Source of the DNA: Catajapyx aquilonaris
Lineage: Eukaryota
Length of the DNA: 64,000 nt
Direction: 5' to 3'
Assembly: GCA_000934665.2 (NCBI GenBank)
Contig: KZ538455.1
Coordinates: forward strand, 1 to 64,000
The notes below the pieces were generated by a model. The model worked only from the letters and a program-made list of their open reading frames with translations, did no database searches and had not been told where the DNA came from. Position numbers and translations under genes: made by a program. Positions 4,310 to 38,400 of this stretch are shown piece by piece; within the stretch, counting starts at the first letter, position 1; every line of letters begins with the position of its first letter.

Positions 4310-4816
4310 TTATTTCCTGCGGCGGCGACCTAACAGAGTTAATACCAGTCCCTTCTTCTTAACTTCTTCCGATGATGAGCTGCTGGATGAACTGCTTCCT
4401 CCTAAAAATCAGAGAAGAGCAAAATAATTAAAAACGTAAAGTTGTAATGTCGACATGAAATGTAAAATTGAATTTTAGAAGAAATTGAATTAATAATTGT
4501 GTAATGTTCGAGTCAATTTTCTGGAGCAATAGCAATACCATTAGAGAAAAAAAATATCTGGAATGCAGCATTTCACATCTTGTAATCATACCAATGTGAT
4601 TCTCATCCCTCTTAGGTCCAGATCTTCCTAAAATATCACAAGTGACTAACCTTTTCGTGTTCCTAATAAGCCCAACAGTGCTGGAGCAGCGGAACACACA
4701 CTAATAGCAATAGCAACCATCAGGAGGGTCAACAACTGCAATGAAAAACCATCGTGTATGGGCACGTAATTAATCGAAGTTACAGTATGCCAAATGCTTA
4801 CCGCCTTGAACGCCAT
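4310..4816 (-). CDS. Small secreted protein with Ser9-Glu-Glu cluster and polybasic tail (63-75 aa)
   Basis: Exons 4816-4802 (MAFKA), 4735-4651 (LLTLLMVAIAISVCSAAPALLGLLGTRK, phase 1), optional 4627-4592, 4401-4310 (GGSSSSSSSSSEEVKKKGLVLTLLGRRRRK*). TATATAAA at 4903-4896. Confidence 0.8.
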
Positions 4817-5533: not shown

Positions 5534-6948
5534 TGCCAGTTTGCGAATACTTATATTATTACTGATGCATGATTCCTTTTGATCGAAGTTTAAAAATACC
5601 TCTTTCATTGTGTTGTACAATGAAGATTTATGATTCAATTGAGAAGTTTTATCACTTTGTTCAAAACACAGTGCCTCTGGCGGGAAAGGAATGAACTTTC
5701 CTAATGACTAAACTAACTTGTTACATTCACTGTGGAATAGTTTTGCTTATGAGTGCATTGAAATCTGTAAGCACTAATTGAACCATATTGATTAGTGGAA
5801 GAACTGATTTATTGATCTCTCAAAAGGACCAGTTTTATTTATCTATTGTTAATTAAGTTTTTTTTAAAAAATTAGGGGCAGAGGTTCATGTCCGTGACAA
5901 TGCTCTTGCTATTACGTTTGTGTCAAATGAATTTATTGCAAAAAGTGGATAATCACGACTGGATTATTTTAGTGTATAGTGTAATGCTAATTATGTAATA
6001 AATTGAGGCGTGGAATAACCAGTTTATGTGAGCACGACAACAAGAGAAAAAGTGCAACAAGCTGTCAAATAAAAAGATGTTGAAGTGACATTGAAAAATA
6101 AATATTATTTCAATGTCTTAACTCCATGAAATATCGTCCTTATGTGCATCGCAGGACGCATATATTGAAAATGAGTCAGATAGGAAATAAAAATGGACAA
6201 TGTTTGCGAAGAAGGTAAAGTGTCGATTTCTATACAATGAACAATGAACAATGAACAATCGACATATCATACATGCCTGTACAATGATCTTGTAAGTAAA
6301 TTGCATTGGGTTACATATTGATGCAATATTCTGTAATATTTTTAGTTACTCTCTATTAATTATTATCTGTACACCCTGTACTTATGTTGATACACCATCG
6401 TTTGCGAAACATGATGATCAATTTGTGGAGCTCGATGGAATTAAATCAGGGCTCATTTCACATTTGAAAATGTGTAATTTTTGAACGCAATCGTAAATAT
6501 CTGCGCCTGACATTGCCATTATTTAAAAAGTGATTTTAATTAGACTTATGATTACAGGTTCAGGAAGTTAGGGTTATTGCGTATTGACTCAGAGCGTTGC
6601 AATAGTCATCTAGTTTTATTAACTGCACGTCAGCTGATATGCCCCCCCTAAAATGACTGGCTTTCATTTACAAATTACTGTACATGATTACACGTATCGC
6701 TTGAACAAAATATCATGTTTTGCATTTATTTTCGTGCATAATTTTATTGTGATGTGTGTAAACTATAAGGAATCTTAATGAAGGATGAAATTAAAGTGAC
6801 ATTTGAAAAATATATTTCATCTTCTGTAATATAACTTTCACAGTAGCCTAGTTGCTTACAGAATTACTGGTTCATTATAAGTAGTTTTTTTTTTCAAAAT
6901 TTGCGTACTTTACAATATCTCGTTTGGTTCTGGGAGTTGTGCATATTT

Positions 6949-8442
6949 TCAGCCTGCTCCAGGATGACTTTGACGCAGGTATTGCAACAGTCGGGTTGCC
7001 TCGTGAGGTTGATCATAAGGGCTGCAATCCAAGACCTGTCCAGTTTTAAAATAATACAATGTACGGTAATAATGACATTCATTTTGACCACCTTCGTTAT
7101 AGTGAGCTCTTTGCCCATACCCATCATAGTAATGAGACTGAGCTTGTGCTTTATGGTCTTTCAATAATTGTTGTAGTCTCATTGCTATGTGTGACCACCT
7201 GTTTTGGGCATCCTCCTCCGGATGATGGTTGGTGTCATCCGGTGCTGTGTTGTCATTGTGTTGATCTCCATCTGTGTAAATAAAAATATCAAGAGCCATG
7301 TGTAATTATTGCACCTAATGATATTACTTACCATGCAAACTTAAATAATTCACTGCATGTTCTGACATCTTATCGTTTTCGCTTGGCCGGTCAGCCTCCG
7401 GATCGTACCAGGAAGATAAATCCGGATGTTGGTAACGTGTGTCTTCCAACTCAGGCTCATACCATTGCGGTAAATCCGGTTCTTGATATTCTGAAGCCCT
7501 TTGTAGCTCATACCATGCTGATTGTTGATCTGATCTTAATGGTGCTGGCTTTTGATATTTTGATTGAGGTTGTTGAGGTTGACCTTTTGATTTGGGGTGT
7601 GGCTCTGGTGCTAACTTATGCTCCTGAAATTTTGTATCCGGTTTTTGATATTCTGAAGTCCTTAGTCGCCCATACCATGCTGATCGTGCACCCGATCTTG
7701 ATGGCTTTTGAGATTCTGAAGTCCTTAGTCGCCCATACCATGCTGATCGTGCACCCGATCTTAATGGCTTTTGAGATTTTGAACGCGGTTGTTGACGTTG
7801 ATCTTTTGATCTGGGGTGTAGCTCTGGTGCTAAATTATGCTCCTGAAATTTTCGTTCCGGTTTTTGATAATCTGAAGCCCTTAGTCGCCCATACCATGCT
7901 GATTGTGGCTTTTGAGATTTTGAACGAGGTTGTTGAGGTTGATTTTTTGATATGGGGTACGGCTCTGGTGATAAATTATGCTCAGGATATTTCAGACTTT
8001 CGGAAGACTGATGTGGCTCATGTAAATTCGGTTTTGTATCGGGTTCTTGCATCTGGTTTCGAAATGCTGAAGTTGCAGCTTCATGTGCATCATGAAATAA
8101 TTCCGTTTGGTGATGCTTGTACGGTTTTGACACTGGTGGATTTGTATGATTCAAACTATGGTTTTTAAACAAAGATTCTGTTGGAACTGGTTGGTTATTT
8201 TCCAACAATGACATGTCCAATGTTTTGGGCGATTCGACACGACCATGTTCATCATATTCAATGTCCGGAGAATACGGTTCTTGAAATTCTTCCGAAGAAC
8301 TCGAAGAAGACTCGTCGTCAAAATAGAAAGCTCCAGTATCGCTGGCGATAAGAGACACTAAAAAGAAAAGCTATTCAAGGTACATAATAATTGCGTAATG
8401 AGGACAGAGTGCAAGTCTTACCAGCACATTTGAGTTCAGCAT
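6949..8442 (-). CDS. Secreted repetitive protein (~460 aa) with N-terminal DDESSSSSSEE and SAWYGRLR / QEHNLAPEP repeats
   Basis: Exons 8442-8422 (MLNSNVL), 8370-7332 (ORF 7324..8358 frame, donor gtaagt, phase 1), 7271-6949 (ORF 6949..7299 frame). Signal MLNSNVLLFFLVSLIASDTGA; clear DNA tandem repeats 7480-7990. Confidence 0.85.
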
Positions 8443-9312: not shown

Positions 9313-10250
9313 TCAGTGGTGTCCGTGACCTCCGTAGTGTCCACCACCACCATGACCTCCATAGTGTCCGCCTCCACCATGACCTCCATAGTGTCCGCCT
9401 CCACCATGACCTCCGTAGTGTCCACCACCACCGTGACCTCCGCCGTAGTGTCCACCGCCTCCGTGACCTCCACCATAATGCCCTCCTCCTCCGTGACCTC
9501 CTCCCCCATGACCTCCGCCGTAGTGACCTCCTCCTCCATGACCTCCGCCGTGATGACCACCCCCGCCGTGATCTACCCACATAGCAACAACCAACAATGT
9601 TTAAAAAAAAAACGAATGTCAGACCATCTGATCCAGTTATTGTTACCTATGCAGATCGACAATTCAAACAGCAATTTAGAACCGAACGGTAATGATGGTA
9701 TACGTCCCCATAATTATAATTTAAATGCCGCATAAATTTGGTCCAAACTGTCACTACAGTTTCGGAAATTGCATCGGTTGCGTCACCCCAATCGAACGTA
9801 ACTCATTGGAAACAATATATAATACAATGGGACTTACGCTGCGCTCCGATCATTGCGACACCCAGGCACATCACCAACATCATAACGACCTGTAACATAT
9901 ACATAAATCACATCAGGTTCAAGGGTTTGGATTGTTCTTCCCAGCAACCAATCGAAACAGAAGCACTAGTTGCTGAAGTCAACAGCGAGTCTCTGAATTA
10001 TTGTGTTATTTTATACGACTTTATTATTTTCATAGATTACAAGTTTCATACTCTCAGTAGTCCGGAAGTGGGTTAGGCAGCCGGGACATGCAAACAAACA
10101 TGCGGAGAAACCTTCACGTTTATACTATATGAGAGATTGAAATAGTACCTTAAGCACTTTTTGGTCAGATAATTTCAACTTTCGACTGTACAAAAATCTA
10201 ATAAAATTACACAACCGTCGAATCGCCATACTCACAATTTTGGACGTCAT
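9313..10250 (-). CDS. Secreted Gly/His/Tyr-rich peptide (GGGGHY repeats), 108 aa
   Basis: Exons 10250-10236 (MTSKI, gtgagt), 9889-9838 (VVMMLVMCLGVAMIGAQ, phase 1), 9572-9313 (HHGGGGHHGGGHGGGGHY...GHGHH*). TATATAAG at 10314-10307. Confidence 0.9.
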
Positions 10251-10683: not shown

Positions 10684-11270
10684 TTAATCGTAGTCTCCAT
10701 GGTGGTGATGGCCACCGCCGTAGTGGCCGTGTCCACCGTAATGTCCATGTCCATGTCCACCATAATGGCCATGTTCATGTCCACCATAATGGCCGTGTCC
10801 ACCATAATGGCCGTGTCCGCCATAATGGCCATGTCCGCCGTAGTGACCGTGGCCATGTCCGCCGTAGTGACCGTGGCCATGCCCGCCGTGATGGTGATGG
10901 CCAAAATCTAAACAGAGCACCAAATGTCAGCAAGTGATTGAAACATATTGTATAATCAGAGCTTACCAGATTCACACATGGTGGGTATGATTAGCAAGAA
11001 TGCTGCAAGTAGTACAACGAAAATCTGAAATAAAAATAATTATTATTACAAGTTTGCAGTAAGGGATTCAAATAGTTTGCATGTTAAATATACAAGTATG
11101 CAAAATATACGAATAAATAAATTCTGAGAATCACGTTCACTTTTGGCGTATATCGGCAACAATGCAATAAGGAAAAGAGTACAGAGCAATGCTCCTAGAC
11201 TTTGCAATTACAAGTTATGCAAAATGGCAAATGCAGAAAAACAACGCATACTCACCAGTTTGGATGCCAT
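10684..11270 (-). CDS. Secreted His/Gly/Tyr-rich peptide (GGHGHY repeats), 98 aa
   Basis: Exons 11270-11256 (MASKL, gtgagt), 11024-10967 (IFVVLLAAFLLIIPTMCES, phase 1), 10907-10684 (DFGHHHHGGHGHGHY...HHHHGDYD*). TATAAA at ~11329-11324. Confidence 0.9.
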
Positions 11271-13853: not shown

Positions 13854-14229
13854 TATTTTCCTCACACGTCTTCTTGTCTCAACCAGTAACCGACAGTTTA
13901 TCTTAAACGTCGGTTAGTTCTTAAACCGTTAATTAGAGATCTCTGCAGTTAACTACGAGCAATCAGTACGTTTGAACCGTCGATAACCTATACAGTTAGT
14001 TCTTAGATTATTTTGTCAAACTTTCCGAACTGAAAGCTGGAACTGTGTTAGAAAAAATTACGACAGTTTTCTCAATTAAATCGTAATAATTTATTCTCAC
14101 ACATTCCTTTGTGGAATAGACACCAAGGTGTTTGCAATAAGGGCACCTGAAAATCAATGAACAAACATGAAGCGAACATGTCGACAAGAAATAATCACTA
14201 AAAAAAGTCGAGCTGAATAATTTACCTGT

Positions 14230-14661
14230 TTAATGGTGATGGCCATGGTGACCGTGGTGATGTCCGTGGTGATGACCGTGGTGATGGTGGTGACCGTGGT
14301 GATGGTGGTGGCCATGATGGTGGTGATGACCATGGTGGTGATCATGGTGGTGATCGTGATGATGATCGTGATGGTGATCGTGGTGATGCCCATGGTGGTG
14401 GTGATGCCCATGATGATGCCCATGATGGTGGTGATGCCCATGGTGATGACCTGTCACACACACAAATCTACTTAATATTCACCAACATTAGCATGCAATT
14501 ACAGCAATTACCATGATGGTCATGATGATGATGCCCTGCGTTGACCGTCAAGACAACAACGCACAGAATCAGAAGAAAAATCAAAGCCTACAACCAAACC
14601 ACGAATTAGTGTTGTTAGAGTGTGAGTTAACAATAAGCTGACTTACGAGTTTGGACGCCAT
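14230..14661 (-). CDS. Secreted poly-histidine peptide, 103 aa (mature ~81 aa, ~78% His)
   Basis: Exons 14661-14647 (MASKL, gtaagt), 14587-14512 (ALIFLLILCVVVLTVNAGHHHHDHH, phase 1), 14450-14230 (GHHHGHHHHHG...DHHH...GHHH*). TATATAAG at 14772-14765. Confidence 0.9.
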
Positions 14662-15305
14662 TGTTGCTCGGACTTAACTCGACAAAACTACCAGGATCTG
14701 TTCCAAAAACTGCAGGGAACTTCTCTCAGAGGAGATTGATGCCGTCCATCGAGGCACCTCATGTCTTATATACAACCAGGGGGGAATGTTGAGATGGCTT
14801 CCTGATTTTTATCCATGATCGAGCAATTATCACCGGTCCAAATTAGCTCACAGAGTTTGGTTCGGACCGATAGGAAGGCGTAAAATTGGGCGAATTCTTT
14901 TGCGAAAGCGAAAGTGGAGCCTTACTTGGAACGAATGCACGAAAGTTGCGACAATGTTTCTCAAATATCATAATTACAACTTGAGATTTGTTTATTTAAG
15001 CTATTTATTTATTGTGACGGGCCACCTGATGAGTATGCAATTTTCATATACGCACAGCATACAATTCAAGTGTGACTGGTCCATTGAACAGATCCAAATC
15101 AAATTTTTTAAATGTTAACTTTCAGAGTACAGAACACTCGTTTGGTAATTTTACCGGAATTAATCCAATTGCGAGGATTCCTGCCAGTCATTTCTTAACT
15201 AAAACCATGCCCAATTAATTACAACGTTCCCTTTCACTGAGAAGTACTCAACCGAAAGATAACATGACAATTAATTACGTAACACAAGACATGCTTCCGT
15301 GCTTT

Positions 15306-15590
15306 CCCCCCCCCCTTTTTGGGAGCAATTTTATGGTTTTATTTACTTGCACTTTATTTGGTTAGAAACTAACTGTTATTTATGTGAAAATAGCTGCTAT
15401 TGTAATTTAGCACCTTTCCAGCCATACAAACATCGCTTATCACCAGCNCCCCCCCCCCCTTTTTGGGAGCAATTTTATGGTTTTATTTACTTGCACTTTA
15501 TTTGGTTAGAAACTAACTGTTATTTATGTGAAAATAGCTGCTATTGTAATTTAGCACCTTTCCAGCCATACAAACATCGCTTATCACCAG
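15306..15590. repeat. Near-identical ~142-bp tandem duplication split by a single N (probable assembly artefact)
   Basis: Two copies of poly-C TTTTTGGGAGC...TTATCACCAGC with n at 15448. Confidence 0.75.
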
Positions 15591-16321
15591 CCTGCACATA
15601 ACCGCATTTTTTTTCTACCCTCGTAACACAGATAGTCCATTTTGCTCCCATGTTCAACCAGTCTATCTGCTCGGATCTATCTCCCCACTACACACATTAC
15701 ATGCCATCCACCCCTCTACGCACATATAATTGAACAAGGTGCATACAGAGATCATGGATCATCCAGGTTCATACACATTGGCATGGATAAATATTATCGG
15801 GTATCTCCAGAGAANGAGGGGGGGGGGGGTTATATTAAATGGCCCATCAACGTCCCCCCCTTTCCACATAGCCAAGTACAATTCGCTAGTTGATGTTCCA
15901 TTCAATAACACGAGAATCAGCGGTCGCTGGTCTTTGGTCCCAAGGGACTCAGCCTGCCAAATGGCCCATTTAATTTTAATGCCCTAATTTACTTGCCCAT
16001 TCTGGGTAGGAAAGCAGGGGGGAGTATTAAAATACAACGGAATTTCAATAAGCTGCCCAATTAACCGAGGGGGGGGGGGAAGGCTATATTTAAAATATGA
16101 TCGTAAATTATTATTGAACCAATAGATTCACATCACTATTGTTGCTGCCATCAAAAGAGCTGCGAGTGATATGGTAGGAAATAGCCCATCGGTATTGTTG
16201 ACATTTTTTTATTGTACGAAAGCGGGTATAAAAAGGGCGCACAGGCACAGCACAACAAAAACTCTATTGTCAACAATGGTTCTCAACAGCAAAAAGTTGT
16301 TCAGTATTTTTCAATGTCATG

Positions 16322-17053
16322 TTAGTGGTGATTGTGCCCTCCGTGATGACCATGGCCGTGTCCGTGATGGTGATGGTGACCGTGACGGTGATGGTGCCCG
16401 TGCCTGTGGTGGTGGTCGTGGTTGTGTTCGTGGTCGTGATGGTGCTTGTGATTGTGCCCGTGGTGGTGGTGGTGGGTATGACCTGCATTCGCAAAAGGAA
16501 ACAGTTCACTTTCCCCCCCAGCAGTCCTTCAGTGAAAACAAATTTTTTAAAACACAAAAACCTACCGTGATAACTGTGTCCGTGGTGGTGGTGACCCGCA
16601 TTGACCACGACCGAAACCACGCACAGGATGGCCAACAATACCAGAACCTGTAATCACATCAAATGTGCATATACGCATCCATATTTTTGCTAAACACTGA
16701 GTGTTTGTACAGAGAAGTTGCCATTTTAGCATTATATAAATATTAGCTGATAATATCAGCTAATTTCATCAGCTAATCGAAATAGCAGCTGATGAACCCA
16801 GCTCGCTAATTTCATCAGCTAATCGAAATAGTAGCTAATGAAACCAGCTAATATGATCAGCTAATTTCGTCGTTTGATAACCAGTGAAAGTATGCAGCTT
16901 TATGCCAATTGCAGAACTCAGCAAAGTTTCGGACAACACAATGCAACAAGCAGCACTCCAGATTTTCACCTTGATGGAGTGCTGATGGTCCTGTCCGGAA
17001 CCTTATTTTTTGGGAGGGAATTCATGAAAAATTCCTACCGCTTTGGAAGCCAT
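16322..17053 (-). CDS. Secreted His-rich peptide, 85 aa (mature ~63 aa, ~63% His)
   Basis: Exons 17053-17039 (MASKA, gtagga), 16647-16566 (VLVLLAILCVVSVVVNAGHHHHGHSYH, phase 1), 16482-16322 (GHTHHHHHGHNHKHHHDHEHNHDHHHRHG...GGHNHH*). TATATAAG at 17158-17151. Confidence 0.9.
16740..16870. repeat. CAGCTAAT-type minisatellite in intron 1
   Basis: Repeated GCTAATTTCATCAGCTAATCGAAATAG units. Confidence 0.65.
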
Positions 17054-18119: not shown

Positions 18120-19730
18120 TCACTTCTTCCTTTTTCTTCCTGCAATTAAAAAGGTTTTTGGGGAGGATTCGGTGGATTAGCAAAACTAAGGCGGTGTCAG
18201 GGTCGGATTTTTTGAATTGTTGGGAGAAAGCAACACTACTTGGTTTCACTTTTCCTCTCTCTTTATTTTTGGTGAGATCATTGGTACCTATAGGTTGTTA
18301 GATCATTTACCTTTCATCAGCGACGATACCCTGTGAGGGGAAGATCAGGATTTAATTGGTCACTGCTGCTATTCTGACCGTTTTGAATGGCCTTACCTTG
18401 GCCGTAACCCCTGTTGCCTCCGGAACCTCTGTTGCTTCCAGAACCTCTGTTACTTCCGGAACCTCTGTTGCCTCCGTATCCTCCGGAGTCGCCGCCGTCT
18501 CCGTATTCGTTTCCGTCTTGGCTTCCGTAATTGCTACCTCCTTGATCGCTGAAACTGTAGCTGTTTTCACTCTCACTGCCCTGTGTTCCGCCTCGTCCGT
18601 TACGTTTCCGGCCGTTTCCGTAACCACCGGAACTTACACCGGATATTCCATAACCAGATCCGGAACTTCCATAACCAGATCCGGAGTTTCCGTAGCCTCC
18701 ATAACCTGATCCAGAGTTTCCGCCGTACCTTCCGTAACCAGAGTTTCCTCCGTAGCCGCCGTAACCAGCAGAATTTCCGCCGTAACCGCTACCCCCGGAG
18801 TTTCCGCCGGAACTAGAACCAGTTCCTGAATTTCCGCCGTAACTAGAACCAGATCCTGAATTTCCACCATAACTAGAACCAGATCCTGAATTTCCACCGT
18901 AACCACCGGACGATCCGCCGTAACTTCCGTAACTTGATCCGGTGTTTCCACCATTTCCGGTGTTTCCGTAACCGGAGTTTCCGTAACTGCTTCCGGTTCC
19001 CCCGCTGTTGCCGCTTCCTACGCTGTTGCCGTAATCGCCTCCGTCGTTTCCCTCGAAGTTGTCGTCATTATCAAACCCGTCTTCTCCGGAGTTTCCGGAG
19101 TTCCCGTTGTTTGTGGAATAACTTGTTCTGGTCCTTCCGGTACGAGTACGACCACGTCCTCGGTTGCCTCCGTCGTCGTCAAATCCTTCGTCAAAGTTTT
19201 CGTCATCACCGTCGTTATTGTTGTTGTTGTTATTGTTGCCTCCACCACCGCCGAAGTCCTGCCCTTCATCATCGTTGTAACCTGACACAAAGAGTCGCCA
19301 ATATTAATTAATTGTTGCCTTGGTGATCTCAAGTTACGAATTGTAATGTCTCATCATTGTTTTTCAATAGTTGAAACAATGCACTGATTGCAGGTGCAAA
19401 ATTTCTCCAATTACAAGTGGTAAAGTGTTAAGCTTACCACCGTCGTTACCTCCATCGTTGCCACCGTCATTGCCACCGTCGTCTCCAAACCCGTCGTCTC
19501 CCTGTCGTCCTGCAAAAATTTATGATTAAACACACAAAAAATTATTAAATTATTATTATAGATTACACCTACCTTGACCTGCCACTGCTCTGCACAACGT
19601 TGCGACAACACATATCAGCAATATCTGAATGAAAAAAAACGCGCTATTAGTCGTCTAATGGTGCAATTAAAAAGGAGTACCCAGCTTGGTGATAATCGAC
19701 TCCACTTACATATCGCACCATATCCGGCAT
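18120..19730 (-). CDS. Secreted Gly/Ser/Asn/Tyr-rich structural-type protein, ~349 aa
   Basis: Exons 19730-19710 (MPDMVRY), 19624-19573 (ILLICVVATLCRAVAGQ), 19509-19438 (GRQGDDGFGDDGGNDGG..), 19281-18397 (ORF 18317..19288 frame), 18139-18120 (GRKRKK*); all phases compatible. TATAAAAG at ~19808-19801. Confidence 0.85.
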
Positions 19731-21309: not shown

Positions 21310-24300
21310 TTAAAATAATAAGGGCTGAGATTTCTTGCCACCTTTGGTTTCATCCAACTTCGGGTTGTAAACTGTTGTAGGTGGTCCGTGATCTGAAAAT
21401 TAAAATTATTGTAAATTAAAATTGTAATTAAAATAAATTTAGAGCAAATACCTGGATCGTCAGCGTCGTTATCTGCTTTCACTAACTCTCTGTACACATC
21501 CTCGTCAAATTGGTCTCGTTTCTTCTTAGGCACTGGAATACCAAAATATATTATTTTAATGTCATACGCAACGTTACGATGTACTTACGAAAATTGTCCA
21601 ATTGGCGATCAATTGCTTTGGTATATTTCCTCAACGATTCTTCTGATAAGTCATCCTTCCGTCTGTTCCTCGTTCGTTGCTTGGATTCGGCCGAATTGAC
21701 GTCGTCGTTTTCGTAGTCATCGTCGTCCGAATGTCGTCTTCCACCGGTGCGGTACTTTCGGTACGGTTCTATAAATCGAACTCCAGTTATTCCATCTTTG
21801 ATTGGGAATGCAAGGTACGGGTTGTAATAGGAGGAAATAGGAGGGTAAATGATGCGTCGTGGTTGTTGACGGAATATGGGTTGTTGTCCTTCATCATTAA
21901 AATAATTACCGTGTGGTCTTCGGTCGTCTCTCCGCCTGTCGTCGTACCGGTCGTCGTACCGGCGTCGGTCATCATCATAGTGCCTGCGACGAGGCCGGTC
22001 ATCATAGTCACGACGTCGATCGTCGTAACGGTCATCCTCACGACGATCATCGTAGCGTGGACGATCGTCGTCCCTGCGACGGTCATATCTGGGACGATCG
22101 TCATAATCGCGTCGGTCATCGTCGTGGTGTCGGGGACGTTCCTCCTCGTCATGATGCTGAGGACGTTCCTCCTCTTCGTCATGGTGTCGATTGTCTGGAT
22201 GATCTTCCTCCTCGTCGTTCCTGTTAACATCCGGATGCTCCTCTTCCTCTCGTTCGCCTTCAGGATACTCCGGCTCGTCGTTGGATGGAACTTCATCGTC
22301 GTCGTTTTGTCGTCGGTGTCTCGATTCGCTTTCTTTCTCATCCTCAGGCTCTTCGCTTCTTTGTTGACGACGCGTCGACTTTTTGGGTTGCTCTTCCTCC
22401 TCTTCCTCCTCTTCGGTTTCAGGCTCCTTAGGTTTTTCCTCTTCTTTCTCTTTGTCGTCTTCCTCCTCTTCTTCCTCCTCTTTCTGCTTCCGTGATTTTT
22501 TGGCCTTTTTCGCTTTGGATTTTCGACCTTTTGGCTTCTTTTTTACTTTTACTTTCGCAGGCTCCTCTTCCTCCTCTTCCTCCTCGTCATCTGTATTTTT
22601 CTTCTTCTTCTTTTTGACCGGTTCTGTTTCTTCCTCTTCCTCTTCCTCTTCCTCCTCCTCCTCGTACTGTACTTTCGTCTTTTTCTTTGGCTTTGGCTTC
22701 TTCTTCCTCTTTATTTTAATTATTTTAACAACCGGCGGTTCTTCCGGTTCTTCATCTTCGTACTCGTATATGACAGGTGCCGCCGTCGGTTGTGTTGCGT
22801 ATGTCCTAACTGGCTGTGAAATGTACGGAAGTTTAAGACTTTCGTTCTCTGGTATGGCTGAATTTACAGAAGGAGCTTCCTCGTAATTCCTATAAGGCTG
22901 CTGTTGCTGTTGCTGTTGTCGTTGTTGTATCTTACGAATCCTAAGTTTAGGCCTGGTTGTGCTGGCCGCCAGTTGCAACTGTTGATTATTATTAAATTGC
23001 AATTGATGCTGATTATTATTCTGATGCAACTGCAGTTGTTGGTTACCGTCGTAAACCAGAGGTTGTTGGTTATTGTTGTAACTGGTCGGTTGATGGTTAT
23101 TGTTGAACGATGCAGGTTGCTGATTATTGTTAAAATTTGTCTGTTGCTGATTGTTGTTGTACCGCCTAGGTTGCTGCTGGTTATTCCCCCGAATCTGTTG
23201 TTGATTGTTGATACGGAATGGTTGCCTGTTGTTGCGGAAATTTTGCTGATTGTTATTACGGGTCTGCTGCTGCAGAGGCGTCTGGTTGTTATTGTATGGC
23301 AGTGAATTACCCTGCCGCTTGTCATAATCCTGCCTCCTTTGATGGAACCCATTGTAGGCGTTTCTGAGCGCATTGTTGTACTCATTGTTGGACGACTGGG
23401 CTGTTATTGGCTGGCTCTCGTTTTCTGAAACCCCGCCCACTTTTGAGCCAAACTCCAAGCTGGCTATGTGGAAGTCTCGAAAATCATCGAAGTGAACTCC
23501 GTGGTCCAACACTGTGTGATCAGTCTTGGGCGTTACATCGGGTTTGGCAGTGACAATCCTCTGAACGGAAGCAGAAAATGGGTTGATCGAAGCTGAAGTG
23601 ACAGGAGACGATGCAGAGAACGCGAGTGTCGAAGGATAGAACTGGTTGTAACTCTGGCCCGGAAATCTAAAACCAGGTGTTGGATCCCGAAGTCTTGATA
23701 TCACCGACAGTGTGTATGGAAAAGGACCTTCCTGGGGTGGAAGAAGCTGCTGTTGTGGACGTCGTTGAAACTGCTGATTTGGTTGAAACTGTCGAGGTAC
23801 AAAGTGTGTTGGACGAGGTGACAAGTGAGCTGGACGAGGTGACAAGTGAGCTGGACGAGGTGACAAGTGTGCTGGACGAGGTGGAAAATGTGTCGGATTA
23901 ATTGACAAGTGTCCTTGCTGAGGTGACAAGTATGCCGGATTAGGTGACAAGCGTGTTGGATTAGGTGACAATTGGGCTAGATTATGTGACAAGATTGCTG
24001 GATTAAGTGACAGGTGTGCTGGAGTAGGTGGACGAGGTGGAAAGCGTGTTGGATTAGGTGACAAATGTTGGGTTGGACGAAATTGTTGTTGAGGTCTTCT
24101 AGGTGGTTCAGGTGAATATTCATCACCATTGGCAGTAGGCGGGGTGTGAATAAAAGGCTGACGACCTGGTAAGCGCTGACCAAACTCACTGTCTGAAGAA
24201 GGATGTCTTTCATCCACAGTGACCTGTGGTTGATACTCTTCTGACCCCTCACTTGTGACTGGTTCTGGTGGAGGTCGAAACTGTCGATATATTGGAGGCG

Positions 24301-25445
24301 AAGGAGGAGGTGGAGGCAATGGTCTTGGTGGTGGTAAAGGTCGGGGCTGAGGTCTGGTCGCCACTTGACCTTTGACAGGAGGACGGTTCTGTCGACGTCC
24401 ATACTCCGGCTCCACTTTGTCCTCCAGCTTCTTCCTGGCTCCTTCCTCACGCTTTTCCTCTTCCTTCTTTTCCTTCCGTCTTTCTTCAGCCGTGTATATC
24501 TTCTTGGAAGACAAGTGCGACTCTTCAGGTATTGTGTTCTTCTGTAGCTCTTCGTCGTGCTGCTTACTTGTTAAAAATTGACCTCTCCTGTAAAACACTC
24601 TGGGCACTCTTGTCACTTTCTGGCTTCTTGTTGTAGTTCTGACTTCTGTTGTTGTTGCTTCTGTTGTTGTTGAAGTGGTAGTTGCTAGTGTCGTTGCTGG
24701 TGGTGTCGTTGTTGTTAGCACGACTGAAACTGTGGGCAATGCAACATCCAACTCTGTTACCACTGTTAGCAAACTGCTTCTAAAAGGAGTGGACTGCGTT
24801 ACGTAAACTTGGGTATCATCCGATGTTGTAATATCCGGATCACTTTCTAAATCCTTACTCTTCACCATTGGCTTTCCATCAGAAGGGTAAAAATTGGAAT
24901 TATTTCGCGCTGTCAAAACTGGCACAACGTGGTTTCGCGTGTCACTGAACTGGAGCGTGGTGAAGACAACCTCGTTTCTTGGAGTAACTTCCTGTTGAAT
25001 CAACCGTGCCATCCGTCGCGTATTATTATTGACATCCATAAGTGCGTAGGCAGGAACACTCGCGTTACCACTCAGCTGTTCAGGTGACCGACTTTCTGCA
25101 AAAATTTTGAGTGTAAATTACGACCCACTGTGGTTAACAAAACCTCACCTTTTTTAGCCGTTGATCCCCACGTACCAGCTAAGATAAGGCTGACCAAGCA
25201 TAGCCACAGGAGCTGTAATTGCAAAATTGTCACGTACTTATTGCACACAGGTGACAAAACGAAAGTGCGATGTAATTTTACGCTAAAAGACAATTTTACT
25301 CACTTGCACATTTTATAATGCGATTAACATAATGAGTATTGGCCTGATTGGATTATCCTATTGTAATGTTTACTTTCAGAATAAGAAGGGGCTTCAACTA
25401 CACCCAAATCCTCACCCATTTGGTCAGCACACAGATTGCAGACAT
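21310..25445 (-). CDS. Large secreted intrinsically disordered block-copolymer-like protein, ~1254 aa
   Basis: Exons 25445-25416 (MSAICVLTKW), 25212-25149 (LLWLCLVSLILAGTWGSTAKK), 25095-21589 (includes ORF 21551..25039), 21532-21452, 21392-21310 (..GGKKSQPLLF*); canonical GT-AG, phases compatible. TATAAAAG at 25547-25540. Confidence 0.9.
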
Positions 25446-32184: not shown

Positions 32185-34898
32185 GACAAAAACCTCCACA
32201 CCAAGAGTACTGTACATTGAGTACAGTGATATTATGGCGACCTCATAGAACTAAAATAATATTTATATTACAGTATTTGACTTGAACGTTATGTCACACT
32301 GCCATTGGAGTGGCAGCATGAATCGTCTTTCAATTGGCCTGTATAGTACTCGACTTTCCCAAAGGGAGACGTGTAATGACAATGGCCAATTTCATGCATT
32401 TCAGTAATTATTATTCCTGCTCCCCCTCCAGAGTTCGAATTTGCTGCATTATTGTTGGTCACAATAAAGTAATGACTCCTTTCCCCCAGCTGTAATTGGC
32501 TCCTTGCACTTTTTAAGATGCTCGATTCCCTCTTTTCATTATATAAAATTGATTCATGGAGATAAGTTGGTATTGGGTCTTCTCCCCCCCCTTTTCTCTG
32601 AATAGGTGACAGCGTCGACTAGCTTTCAAGACGAAAAGCCCTCCTTGAATTGAAGCAAAGTGAATTAAATCGTTCAATCCCTGAATGCAGTCCTTAAAGT
32701 CTATTGAATTATCCTAAGTGGATACGCAATGCAGTAGTCTCATCTGCAAAAGTAGGCTGGAGAAGCAAACGGTATAGGGGTGGGTGGGGTGGAGAAAAAG
32801 AGAAAAGCCTTGATGATTTGCTTCTTGGCATTAGGAGATGGCGCGATTTCCTTCCCAGGACTCTTCCTGTTGACTCCCAACTTTTTTTTCTGTGATCCCT
32901 AAATCCCCTTTTCAAAATATCCCTGCCTGGAAAAAAAATCCGGAATTGAATTATTTCGCTCCTCACAAAATTCCCAGCTCGTGGTCAATTTTTCTTTAAC
33001 AACCACTCGAATTTGTGAGTGACAAATTCACGTGTTTTGCACTCCTTTTCCTAATATGTGTAAGACAATGTCGGTATCGCTGTAATACAACTATTCTCTT
33101 GTATTTTTTTTATATCCCAGAGTTTTCTTTGCCTTCTGAAATGGGAATTGATTTTCCAGGTCTTCCTCTATGGCAAAGAAGGGGAGAAATGTTTGGGAGG
33201 AAGAGGGCTGCGCTTGTCGACTTCAATTTAAATAGAACGATCAAGACATCCACTCCAGCTATCTCCGGGGGAAAGTGAAAACATTTCGCCGTCTCGCTCC
33301 GGAATTGACAATAGCGAATGCTGATGCACCTCCGCTCTCTTACTGTGCTATCCACTTTGTCAAGAAATGGAGAGAGAAAAAATGTGCAATTTTTTTTAAA
33401 AAAAGGTATTGCGAATAATGTGACCAATAGTGACTCCTTATGTGTTTATAGTTTCAGTTATGCAAACACTGGCCGCACATAATAGAGTTTGGGGACAATG
33501 GACAAAGTTTGCTGATCCGAATCTTGACACACCGGATTATATCGTACATGGTGCTAAGCAGGTCTTTACTTTGGTGCTGAGAAGATTCCTTGTATAAATG
33601 TACGACCTAGTTGTGGAGAGTTGCCCTCCACGTAACTCTCAGAAACTGATTTAATTGCAGAAACTTTCCTTAGGAGGGAGAGACGTCGTCGTGGACTACC
33701 CCCCCTTTCCAAAAGTTAAGGAGACAACTGCAGAGTAAATCTGGTGAAGTGCGGAGTGTGTTCCGGTGACTGCTCCGTATATATACGGGAGAAAAAGAGA
33801 CCAGGTCCGAAATTCTTCTTCTCAGGGCCTTATCCGGGGGTTCTCCGCCACTTGGGATGAAGCCCACCAACTCGTGAAAAGAGGCTGAAACAAATCCGGA
33901 TCAAAGACATTGTCAGGAAAGGGATTCAAGCAAGGGTTGGAACTCCGGGCAAGCAATTGGAGGTGTTTTTTTGGTTTAAAAAAAAGTGATTTGCATGCAA
34001 AATGATGGAGTGGATTATTGTATGCGCTTTCGAAAATTTCATTTATGCCCGATAGTTTGGGGAGTAACACTTTGTAATGCATTCATTGCGGTATAAGTAC
34101 ACTGAGTCCACAGTCCAATTGTTTGAACCAGCCAACTCAGAGTTTAAAGAGAAGCAGCCAGGAAAACTTGTTTAGGTCTGCACAACCCTGTACGTTGAGT
34201 CATTATGACCTTGCTGATTAGAAAGTATAAAAGCGAGAGGCTGAATGCACAATATTAGTTTCACAGCAGTTGACGATTAGTGTACGGCAATAAAGATAAC
34301 ACCCTATTCAAACCCGGAACAGTAACGAGCATTATATCAGTGCTGCACCCTAACTTTATATTCATCCACGTTTAATATTGACTCAATCTTTATGAAACAT
34401 AATGAAAAGTTGAACATTATGTAAGAACAGCATGTCTGCAATGCTACTAGCAGTTTCACCCATTGTTACTTTATTGGTTACCAGCTGAAGAAACAATGAG
34501 TAAAAATATACGAATAATTGCGAATAACAATAATTTTTTCTCTATTCTCTTCTGACCCTGTTTCCTTACTCCCAGTGGTCGGCATTAGGAAGGGCAGACA
34601 CGCAGGAATGTAAGCTGTGACCACCCGCAGGATTTGTATGTGTAGACCCCCCCTCTTTTTCTTCTCCCTTGAGAGTAGGTTATGTATCCCCGGAAGGTGT
34701 TGTGAGTAGCATGCGCGCGCAGTGAGTGTGGAGAGCGCAGGCGGTGAGGGGGGTGCATGGCAACCATTAGAGAAGGGGGAACCCGAAGAAGGCCCTACCC
34801 CTCAGATTGTAGCCGGGCTTCGAAGCTGGCTGTTGTGTTGTGTCCCATGTGAAAAGTTTTAAGAGAAAGGAAGGGGAGGGGTGGTCTGCCCCGGGGCG

Positions 34899-35426
34899 AT
34901 GGCCGGAAGCAACATCGTGGCGGAATGGCTTCGTTCACTTCAGTTGGGGCAGTACGCGGATTCCTTCCTGGACAATGGTTACGACGATTTGGAGATATGC
35001 AAGCAGGTGGGCGAGCCGGACCTGGACGCGATTGGGGTCTTCAACCCGCATCATCGCACGCGGCTACTAGACGCGGTCAGAGGCTTGAGAGAAGAAGGAG
35101 CCGCGTCTGTGTATTTCACTCTGGAGGAAGCGGCAGCTGCTGTGGCATCCGTGGCCGAAGAAGAGGACAGCCCTGAAGAGGACTCGCAGCAGCTGCAGCC
35201 TCCGGTTCCATCATCGTCATCATCATCTCGTAGCAATAACAACAAGGCCAATAGGACACCCACGCCGTCCGAGAGTGCGGGAAGCAATGTGGACAACTTC
35301 TTGGACGAGTATGAGGAAGGGAAGGCAGAGTTGGTCAAGATACCCAAAGTGCAGCTCAGGGAGCTGTTGAAGGATAGGATCGGACAGGATGGCATCAGGC
35401 TCACGTGTCTGCCCTACTCCACATCC
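34899..35426 (+). CDS. SAMD5: First coding exon of a SAM-domain protein, SAMD5-like (N-terminus of an arthropod SKIP/SASH1-type gene)
   Basis: MAGSNIVAEWLRSLQLGQYADSFLDNGYDDLEICKQVGEPDLDAIGV...VYFTLEE...LVKIPKVQLRELLKDRIGQDGIRLTCLPYS matches, from memory, both conserved SAMD5 blocks; ends at a phase-0 gtaagt donor at 35427. Symbol means 'SAMD5-like'. Confidence 0.9.
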
Positions 35427-38400
35427 GTAAGTGCATCCTTATAATATCTAGTTAGGAAAGAGTCCCGAGAAAACCCTCACGCCAGCACAATTCATCCGCT
35501 GTGAAAATTCGAGTGATAGTTGCTGATTGGGATGCAGTATTTGCGTTTAATTAGGCTCACTAAAGCGGACAGGAGGAAAGTAGTGGCCATTAAACTATTA
35601 TGGGCGGAGTTGTGTGCCATTAGCCGAAAGGAAAACAAAGTGTGGGCTGCTTCAAAGAGGCGGGATAAGAGCGATACTTTGTTGTTGTGATTTTTCCAGT
35701 TGTAGAGGTAATGCAACAATGGCACCCAAACTATTACCCAACCGTAAGAAGAGCAACAATGGCCCGGTTCTTATCAGCAACGGACACTCACCAATCCTGA
35801 ACAATACCCCCCCAAAAAAGCTGGGAATGTCACACTGCCTATTAGGTCCAATTGTCACCCCCCACTAAAAAAAGATGCAAATGAAGCAGCCCACGCTGCG
35901 GATGGTTAGAAAATTTAAACCAATTAACATCGATTCCGACCCCAGCAAAAATTAGGCAACTGTCGCGACATCTTTTTATTGTTATATGGTAAGTATCGTA
36001 TGAAAATCGGGTGGTTCAAAACACCATAAAAATTTGAACCTATGTTCGGTCTCGAAATTGGCACAATTTTCAATCGATTGTTCCAGATTATTTTTTGTGG
36101 ACATTCCGATGTGATTCATATCGGTAACAATGCAGTCATTATGGGGTATGTATATAAGAGGCCCAGGCCTCCGGTTTATGAATACTCGGCAGGCGTTTAT
36201 TTAAGCATTCAGGCTGCGTTTATGGACATTTATTGCAAGGGCCCCCCCGGAAGAGAGTCTGGGGAAGTTTTTATTGGGAAATCAGATTTAAATGATGAGG
36301 TTATGAACAGGGAAAACGCCTGCATAATGAACGCAATGAAAAATCTTGTGCAGTTGACAATCAACGCGGATCGTGTAGGGACATCCAAGCAATGCAAAAA
36401 TATTTCTGCAGATGGTGCTGGCGGATGAGAAGTTTATTTTTTTTGCCATGGACTTTAAAAAAAGGGGGGTATTGCCGCATAATTAATTAGGCATCGATTT
36501 ACTTCGTCTCCGTACTACCCAGTGCTCTTTGTGCCGCCTGTGTGTGTAATTCGCCAAAAGGGGGATATATACAGACAGGGGGGGGGGGGGNTTTGCGACA
36601 TTCGTAGCTTGCAATTGCGCGGGTTTGATTGATTTTGGGGGCATGGCGAAAAAACAAGTCCTTTTCAGTAAATTAAAACTTGTCTGCCTCGGGTTTGTAG
36701 AGAACCAGTCCGGTGTATAATTTTATGCGGGCCCACACACACATATCGGTTGTCAATATTTGATCGTTTTCTGGGGCTTCAACCCCCCCGAACTTGTTTA
36801 TCTGACATACTCTATACCCTCGGAATTAATTTCTCGTAAACACCACGGGTCAGGGCAAGTACCGACAATTTTTATGCGAAATTTTAAATATGGCACACAG
36901 TTAATTGTTCAAGTGAGCAAGTGGCATGAAAGGTCGGTTCGGTTCGATGACACTGGCCTTCCTGCATGGAGATTCTCAGACTCAACGAGGCTAACAAAAA
37001 CAAACAAATCTTATCAAGGAAGTAGATCTCACCTGCAAAAAAAAATGGCAGCGAGTTCAGTGCATTCACTGTATATTATTAGAAAAAATTTGCAAATTTT
37101 TTGACTTTTAAGAAAAGTAGAGCGGACAACTAATACATTCGGCAGACATATTAGTTTAAAATGAGCTGCTTAAAAATAAGCTGATGCCAAAAATTAACTT
37201 AATATACATTGGTTCGATATTGCCAATATTTTTGTTTGCGAAATATGGGTATGCCACAAATTTACATCGGTACAAGCAACAGTTGCGATCACTTCCGTTA
37301 CAAACTGTGTGCAGTTTCTTACTATTTCAACATGACAATGAAGTGTTTTCGTACAAGAGCCATGATTTTGGTGCTATTTATGGATGGTTAGTGATGCGAA
37401 TAAAAGGAAGCGCGTCCCGCCAGATGGGGCGTTTAAACACCGTTTTGCCAGGATCAATTTCAGGCCGCATGGGCGTGAAAAACGCACGCAACTGGCAGCC
37501 TGAAATTATAACCTGGGCACTGCAGATTACAATGCTCATTAAGTGTAATAGGTTTGCCTTTTGCGATAAAATGACACACGATCATATATGATGTGTATAC
37601 CCACAAGAGAATGGTACGGCCAGGAAAAAAAGTAACACAACTAATCCTGGAGTATGCCAAAACCGGAAGTGACTGTAAGGACACAAAGAGGGAAGAAGTG
37701 ATGGATGGGACACAGTTTGGGGTCTGTAGCAGGGAGTCCTCTTTGTCAGCTTGACCGGAAGATACTACTGGACGAACTTTTTCTAAAGTCCGTCGGTGCG
37801 AAACCGAAAGAAGAGACCAAACATAACAACTCCCCCTAGAATTCTCCATGGGAATGGAACAAAAAGGACGACAGGACTTCACGCTTTGGGGAGGAAGGAG
37901 AAAAAAAGAGAGTAAAATTCAATAGGAATGGCCGCTTTAGAATTTTAACTTAGCTCTCTGTACACCTTTCTGAGAAAAGAGAATGCTCATGGAATTTTTA
38001 AGAGATGGGAAATAACGTGCAATTTGAGTCGGTTTAGCTGGAAATTTTTGGGCGGTTTGGCTATGGGTTGAATGTAAATGCCATACCGCTGCGGGTGTCG
38101 CAATTTTAGGCTGTAATATTGTAAGCCTCGGACTTGTACCTGGAGGCTCATTTACCTTCTCTATGTACTGCCTGGGTGGTTTCAGAAGGTAAATTATTTA
38201 GAAGACACACAGTAATGCGCTACGCTGGTCGCTGGTGGTCATTTTATTATTTTAAAACAGTTCAATATCGAGTCGGAATTTAGACCCAAGACTGTAAATG
38301 CCATTTGTAAGTAATTAACACAATGTTGGCCTTCTCTACGTATAAGGCGATTCTGCGTCCAAATGTAAAACAGGAATTTAAAATTTATGACAATATTAGA

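Follow-up and report, generated by a model that had tools for sequence, protein, structure and literature searches.

A predicted secreted peptide of histidine, glycine and aspartate with about 78% histidine, and its diverged duplicate, in a japygid-type dipluran genome

The window, that is, the whole stretch of DNA analysed here, covers positions 1 to 64,000 of contig KZ538455.1 in the Catajapyx aquilonaris assembly GCA_000934665.2 (64,000 nucleotides). COII of a mitochondrial-type contig in the same assembly is 92% identical to that of Japyx solifugus, 85% to Occasjapyx and 79% to Parajapyx; for every other named match among the 120 matches listed, the identity is 76% or lower. This indicates that the genome is that of a japygid-type dipluran, one of the hexapods outside the insects. 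Japygids live in the soil as predators and bear hardened forceps at the tail end. COI on contig C5905 is split over several frames, reflecting either a nuclear copy or assembly errors. The window contains, at 34872-35444 on the plus strand, the first exon of a gene of SAMD5 type (SAM_1, E 5e-16); for most of the gene's length, the match to insect SAMD5 proteins is only about 52-63%.

The gene under study lies at 14661-14230 on the minus strand and consists of three coding exons and two GT-AG introns, which together encode a precursor of 103 aa. Its features are as follows.

14766..14772, minus strand: TATA box, 111 nt 5' of the ATG
14647..14661, minus strand: coding exon 1, 15 nt, five codons
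14588..14646, minus strand: intron 1, 59 nt, GT..AG, phase 0
14512..14587, minus strand: exon 2, the remainder of the predicted signal peptide (to 14537), then 8 mature residues
14451..14511, minus strand: intron 2, 61 nt, GT..AG, phase 1, splitting a Gly codon
14230..14450, minus strand: exon 3, the His/Gly/Asp repeat and a TAA stop
14090..14095, minus strand: AATAAA poly(A) signal, 135 nt 3' of the stop

The coordinates, the two introns with intact splice sites and the composition of His, Gly and Asp only, with about 78% His, had been given in a sequence-only reading of this DNA and were all confirmed. The other two minus-strand frames of exon 3 give Ile/Thr/Met, or Ser/Pro with a stop. The predicted leader is 22 aa long and ends in V-N-A, and its best 12-residue mean hydropathy is 3.82. 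The signal peptide and the cleavage at VNA are predicted from this hydropathy and the V-x-A end, and we infer that the peptide is exported.

The first 25 kb of the window is occupied by a run of minus-strand genes for low-complexity proteins, most of them clearly secreted, and those searched against Pfam gave no match. The following neighbours are referred to below.

16322..17053, minus strand: closest family neighbour, 85 aa from three coding exons; 40 of the 63 mature residues are His (63%)
10684..11270, minus strand: gene for a secreted Gly/His/Tyr protein of 98 aa; His is 38% of the mature part; seven copies of GHGxY
9313..10250, minus strand: gene for a secreted Gly/His/Tyr protein of 108 aa; Gly57 His22 Tyr7 in the mature part (26% His, 66% Gly); 17 copies of GGH
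4310..4816, minus strand: gene for a small secreted protein of 63 aa with a Ser run, a basic tail and no His repeat; first exon of 15 nt, as in the focal gene
18317..19727, minus strand: gene for a secreted protein rich in Gly, Ser, Asn and Tyr, about 365 aa, with a provisional start codon
6949..8358, minus strand: probably secreted repeat protein, two exons, about 450 aa, first exon not fixed

A paralogue of the focal gene is found on contig C1053, with five exons, four introns and 99 aa. The 15-nt first coding exon is common to five cluster genes of the window and to this paralogue, and the spacing between the TATA box and the ATG is 105 nt in both the paralogue and the 16322..17053 neighbour. 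This neighbour also has the leader pattern of the focal gene, ILC...VNA-G-HHH. The genes at 9313, 10684 and 16322 and the focal gene form a graded series of 26, 38, 63 and 78% His, and they are tied together by their intron positions: the phase-1 intron comes right after the leader in the two Gly-rich genes and 8-10 codons later in the two His-rich genes, and the C1053 paralogue has both positions, its intron 3 corresponding to the focal intron 2. The two Gly-rich neighbours carry 9 and 17 copies of GGH.

When the genome was searched with the first-exon pattern, four of six matches fell in family genes, and no His- or Gly-rich frame was seen in the DNA examined around the other two (contigs C138 and C1007). 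The leader pattern gave 18 matches, three of them in family genes, and many of the other 15 share one repeat-like sequence. About ten contigs (L044-L058) carry a short repeat-like element that matches the leader pattern by chance.

The predicted mature chain of 81 residues consists of His63, Gly13 and Asp5 (77.8% His), and His makes up 61% of the whole precursor. The His codons are CAT (32) and CAC (31), and Gly uses all four of its codons. The His runs (ten of length 3, five of 5, two of 2 and one of 4) are always parted by a single Gly or Asp, and no residue shuffle of the chain among 20,000 gave single spacers with runs of at most five. Over the focal gene and the paralogue, none of the 37 spacers is Asn, Tyr, Pro, Arg, Leu or Gln, the six other residues one mutation from CAY; such residues interrupt other His tracts of the same genome (loci L007 and L008), and a Gly codon lies more than one mutation away from a His codon. 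The calculated side-chain charge is +53 at pH 5, +26 at pH 6 and about zero to +1 at pH 7, in a crude calculation with a single His pKa of 6.0 and no neighbour effects. An AlphaFold model of the focal exon alone was uninformative (pLDDT 61, pTM 0.14, no secondary structure or beta).

Searching the genome with the DNA of the focal locus gave 38 matches, most of which cover the repeat only. The ten loci taken from these matches include four uninterrupted CAY tracts on other contigs, in which the CAT/CAC counts are 30/10, 17/19, 16/23 and 40/4. Because three of these four unrelated tracts are also well mixed, the mixture of CAT and CAC is not diagnostic of selection, as the sequence-only reading had taken it to be. 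The protein-level selection for which that reading argued is supported on other grounds, namely the paralogue and the gene family.

The mature part of the paralogue has 77 residues, His58, Gly14 and Asp5. Among the 77 aligned mature codons, 41 are identical to those of the focal gene, 32 are synonymous and 4 change the amino acid, and 36 of the 42 base differences fall at third positions. Nine of the 22 leader residues differ, and the introns and flanks have almost nothing alike, save a short upstream match and a 15-nt stretch around the focal AATAAA, 14 positions of which are the same in the 3' region of the paralogue. The synonymous sites are near independence, since paired codons agree in 34 of 57 cases for His (against an expected 50%) and in 5 of 12 for Gly (against an expected 32%). 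The paralogue nevertheless holds the frame across two introns that are absent from the focal gene, and the two share the same three-letter alphabet, block order and stop position. Because alignments of low-complexity sequences inflate identity, shuffle tests were applied: the real score was reached by 1 of 5000 block-order shuffles and by 0 of 2000 residue shuffles. The pattern G-HHH-[G/D]-HHH-[G/D]-HH has eight matches in the genome, all at the focal and paralogue loci, and none in the control. As a copy that has diverged so far keeps the frame, the alphabet and the block order, we conclude from this comparison that the two genes are an old duplicate pair under purifying selection.

These results bear on the possibility that the locus holds no functional gene, being a compound CAY microsatellite behind a signal-like exon or a silent copy. 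Such an origin could draw on the mixed CAT/CAC tracts of 36-44 codons that the genome contains and on the predominance of repeat-only matches among the 38. However, the flanks and introns of the second gene have diverged, yet this gene keeps the stop position, the block order, the alphabet and, despite two additional introns, the frame, and the TATA spacing and the poly(A) motif are conserved between the two genes, so that this explanation is very improbable. An origin de novo out of a (CA)n repeat, which the available part of PMC13756084 proposes for Drosophila, was also considered and rejected, as there is neither a His-Thr pattern nor a CAC bias.

The spacers of the two genes show a further regularity. 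Because the core His runs are only 3 or 5 long, the spacers fall in one parity series, which holds 15 of 18 spacers in the focal chain (residues 9-75) and 16 of 19 in the paralogue (residues 8-72). If the strand is extended, His would therefore occupy the whole of one face, with 33 in a row in the focal chain and 32 in the paralogue. Such parity was reached by 349 and 287 of 20,000 block shuffles, respectively, for a pattern that was spotted post hoc in two genes that share ancestry and are not independent. Repeat duplication could be its source.

In a metagenome scan, the register G-HHH-D-HHH-D-HHH gave only two exact matches, and both are tails of a bacterial nickel-insertion protein (PF01969, E 1.5e-91). 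The four-residue register may therefore simply be a good metal-binding spacing. At both loci (L032:1330-2500 and L033:595-1755), the PF01969 protein (profile positions 1-238) continues into a long HHH-D/G tail followed by a stop; the tail length differs between the loci, and an AIR-carboxylase-family gene adjoins.

Metal binding and pH switching of the focal peptide are very likely, judging from chemistry and from analogy with similar proteins; in vitro, the chemistry makes metal binding all but certain. The ATCUN pattern is defined at the amino terminus of a chain and binds Cu or Ni. The predicted mature start, Gly-His-His, has this pattern, which is near trivial at such a composition. Together with 63 imidazoles plus Asp, and with the exact register shared with the nickel-insertion tails, it would suit a soluble extracellular or luminal buffer that stores or detoxifies Cu, Zn or Ni, comparable to the nickel sequestration described for Hpn (PMC4671568, in part), and possibly a copper reservoir for secreted copper enzymes.

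The surroundings of the paralogue are of interest in this respect. C1053:12900-45100 holds a tandem array of at least six genes with DOMON and copper type II monooxygenase domains (DBH/MOXD1-like), which accounts for 13 of the 42 matches to PF03712 found on 11 contigs of the genome, and the paralogue lies antisense between the first two monooxygenase genes of this array. At about 10.7-11.2 kb of the same contig a further stretch resembles a short, independent DOMON gene that has a leader of its own. However, no further His-rich gene was found in 16 scanned stretches, which comprised the rest of the C1053 array to 58 kb, parts of eight of the ten other monooxygenase contigs and the end of the window contig, and the link is therefore one suggestive coincidence. 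A general association of His peptides with copper-monooxygenase arrays is unsupported beyond the C1053 locus. The buffer explanation is also weakened by the lack of such a copper enzyme near the focal copy and by the poor solubility to be expected of a neutral poly-His chain near pH 7. It is considered unlikely, with a probability that is still appreciable.

Comparison with known systems places the focal peptide among His/Gly-rich secreted proteins. The Glycera protein MTP also has a signal peptide followed by nearly only Gly and His, with some acidic residues and no folded domain; however, in the available text of PMC9999432, it is a 30-kDa protein of 49% Gly and 40% His with never more than two His running, whereas the focal peptide is of 10 kDa with 78% His and runs of 3 and 5, in a hexapod and not an annelid, and no sequence homology supports the likeness. 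The Nereis/Alitta proteins Nvjp-1 and Nai11527 are likewise secreted His/Gly/Asp-rich chains, to which the Tyr-bearing neighbours are closer still, but they have 27% and 16% His, respectively, masses of 32-53 kDa and Tyr, and their zinc binding and location have been measured (PMC9999432, PMC13120676 and PMC6477608, each in part). The pentapeptide GHGxY of the squid beak protein DgHBP occurs in seven copies in the 10684..11270 neighbour, whereas DgHBP itself has 10-16% His (PMC9999432, in part) and the focal peptide is without Tyr, Ala, Phe and GHGxY. The arrangement of a signal peptide and a low-complexity His/Gly chain, as in these proteins, is present in the focal gene, where the signal is predicted; the motifs GGH, GHGxY and Gly-flanked Tyr have 0 copies in the focal peptide and the paralogue and are present in two neighbours. 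MTP, Nvjp-1 and DgHBP constitute a functional class and not one homologous family.

RR-2 insect cuticular proteins resemble the focal peptide in being secreted arthropod proteins from clustered genes whose His could enter catechol cross-links, but they reach up to 45% His (PMC9999432, in part), far below the focal value, and neither the R&R consensus nor any Pfam domain was detected in exon 3 and three neighbouring His exons (E up to 1). The only one of the comparators considered with a similar fraction is the histidine-rich protein of P. lophurae with 73% His, an unrelated protist granule protein with Pro, Ala and Glu (PMC3996934, in part); the Ala, Pro and Glu of Plasmodium HRPs are absent from the focal mature chain, and the host genome is that of a hexapod. 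Hpn, to which the sequence-only reading had likened the peptide, is also small, with His in runs and metal-binding potential, but it fits poorly, being an intracellular bacterial protein with 28 His among 60 residues and two Cys pairs (PMC4671568, in part), whereas the focal gene has a signal-like leader and introns and its mature chain has none of the Cys pairs or the Gln-rich tail of Hpn and Hpn-2, containing no Cys or Gln.

At 77.8% His, the predicted mature peptide exceeds every comparator (the highest being 73%), in a set that is not a survey of all proteins. Poly-His/poly-Gly peptides are reportedly on record from snake venom. Protein searches with the focal His exon returned 0 matches among 8000 scored candidates, 0 in a 50%-identity library and 0 in the PDB, which is uninformative for a three-letter query. 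In the ESM Atlas, the exon matched three unnamed clusters below 0.8, and the 10684..11270 neighbour matched no cluster; prokaryote genomes gave 0 matches to a strict His/Asp/Gly pattern. On this sequence evidence, the peptide resembles His/Gly-rich metal-binding secreted proteins and appears as a member of no named family.

Heme binding, another role put forward by the sequence-only reading, would ask only for many His, as in bis-imidazole coordination, and HRP II of P. falciparum takes up 15-18 hemes (PMC3996934, in part). On the other side, the focal peptide has neither Ala-His repeats nor a Cys for the dimer described for HRP II in the available part of the same source. The gene context of the focal locus is not digestive, and nothing at the locus points to a heme load, so that the analogy to Plasmodium HRPs is a poor fit. 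Ala-His repeats are the motif of HRP II, and to our knowledge no japygid feeds on blood. A heme binder of this kind is thus scarcely probable.

An antifungal or antibacterial Gly/His-rich peptide, acting via zinc binding, pH-dependent charge or zinc-induced fibrils, deserves more weight, as the size, the signal peptide and the tandem family all fit. Among insect antifungals, tenecin 3 and holotricin 3 are rich in Gly and His, and in its pattern of Gly runs and His the 9313..10250 neighbour is like holotricin 3 (PMC5715947, in part); shepherin I, with GGH repeats and 28.6% His, is antifungal once in Zn fibrils (PMC10698721, in part). All three share with the focal peptide a small, secreted, low-complexity Gly/His chain. 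They are, however, Gly-dominated with single His, and their activity has been demonstrated (PMC5715947 and PMC10698721, in part), whereas the focal chain, with 16% Gly and 78% His, is not a Gly-dominated chain with spaced His, a description that the 9313..10250 gene (66% Gly) does fit. Furthermore, the focal peptide has no Lys or Arg and no net charge at pH 7, and the remaining cluster consists of large low-complexity secreted proteins with no recognisable immune genes. A defence role for the focal peptide is therefore a minority possibility, on the unlikely side.

The reading that we prefer, by analogy and at a little less than even likelihood, is that the secreted near-homopolymeric His peptide fills an extracellular material, most likely hard cuticle or a gland secretion, and reacts there with metals and catechols. 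The neighbours contain GHGxY and GGH, which are described as motifs of squid beak HBPs and of Glycera MTP, and this counts in favour of such a matrix role. In the available text of the sources, a pH change converts Nvjp-1 from a coil into a beta-sheet and Zn makes it form fibrils, and His-catechol adducts occur in insect cuticle (PMC9999432); worm jaws, spider fangs and insect mandibles are hardened by His-Zn (PMC6477608, PMC13120676). On the other hand, the focal mature peptide has no Tyr, Lys or Cys, no chitin-binding motif was found and focal exon 3 had no Pfam match, and a mass of 10 kDa is far below those of MTP (30 kDa) and Nvjp-1 (32-40 kDa). Antifungal peptides bear the same Gly/His motifs, so the neighbours cannot tell a material role from a defensive one.

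In the preferred reading, the peptide would be held in acidic secretory vesicles as a soluble polycation (+26 at pH 6, +53 at pH 5). Near pH 7, where its net charge would be about zero with the five Asp offsetting the still-protonated His, it could condense. In the condensed state, the imidazoles may be bridged by Zn or Cu, add to oxidised catechols, or both, and the Gly/Asp spacers of one parity would leave an all-His strand face. Candidate sites in hard cuticle are the mandibles, claws and forceps, and the neighbours of graded His content (26, 38, 63 and 78%) might provide a hardness gradient. The matrix, metal-buffer and antifungal roles can overlap, and all remaining explanations together have a small probability. 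Of the functional interpretation in the sequence-only reading, a metal sink, pH-switchable cross-linker or heme binder, metal binding and pH switching are thus very likely and heme binding is unlikely; the tandem Gly/His/Tyr cluster, the paralogue and the lineage, the context with the greatest bearing on function, had escaped it.

A bolder form of the reading would hold that the ribosomally made, secreted peptide is nearly a His homopolymer, at or above the highest recorded His content, and that selection keeps its single Gly/Asp spacers in register for the all-His face of metal-bridged strands. In this hexapod outside the insects, it would stand at the top of a graded series from which a metal-hardened or redox-active material is made, or which supplies secreted monooxygenases with copper. 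Taken as a whole, this is improbable.

Secreted His/Gly metal-binding proteins are already known, and the animal examples compared here reach at most 40-47% His. A 10-kDa chain of three residue types and 78% His, kept in two old copies, is about as simple a model as nature offers for materials based on His-metal and His-catechol bonding; the peptide can be made synthetically, with the four graded neighbours as built-in controls. It would also open a first molecular route to asking whether hexapods other than insects use metals to harden cuticular tools, and by what means. The literature search, which left most subscription journals outside its range, returned nothing on zinc or His-rich proteins in dipluran cuticle, no dipluran or japygid His-rich protein and no comparable His sequence from an arthropod fang or mandible. 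The gene may nevertheless stand under a generic name among those listed by arthropod genome papers. Diplurans are mentioned merely in passing in the available part of PMC12024784, and those of PMC2185886, PMC2114335 and PMC8522059 hold nothing bearing on the focal peptide.

Several minor features of the window were also recorded. The region 6949-8430 on the minus strand contains 63-bp and 219-bp repeats with a recurring SAWYGRLR motif. An open frame of 1188 codons at 21551-25117 on the minus strand passes in turn through Thr-, Pro-, Gln/Asn-, Glu/Lys- and Asp/Arg-rich blocks; it has no Pfam match, and its upstream exons would include a leader-like stretch. A small gene at 852-1574 on the minus strand encodes a leader, an acidic stretch and Pro/Met/Val repeats of 7 residues. 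At 15306-15592, an N and a poly-C run join two near-perfect 144-bp copies, which probably reflects an artefact of assembly, and several poly-G/C runs of the window start with N. Elsewhere in the genome, contig C4305 (L014:700-2900 and 5600-5930) carries more genes for secreted, cuticle-type proteins rich in His, Gly and Tyr, one of which terminates in GHH repeats, and these genes adjoin two long frames of membrane-protein character. With this further example on C4305 (L010/L014), His-rich secreted genes are common in the genome, and the focal pair is the extreme.
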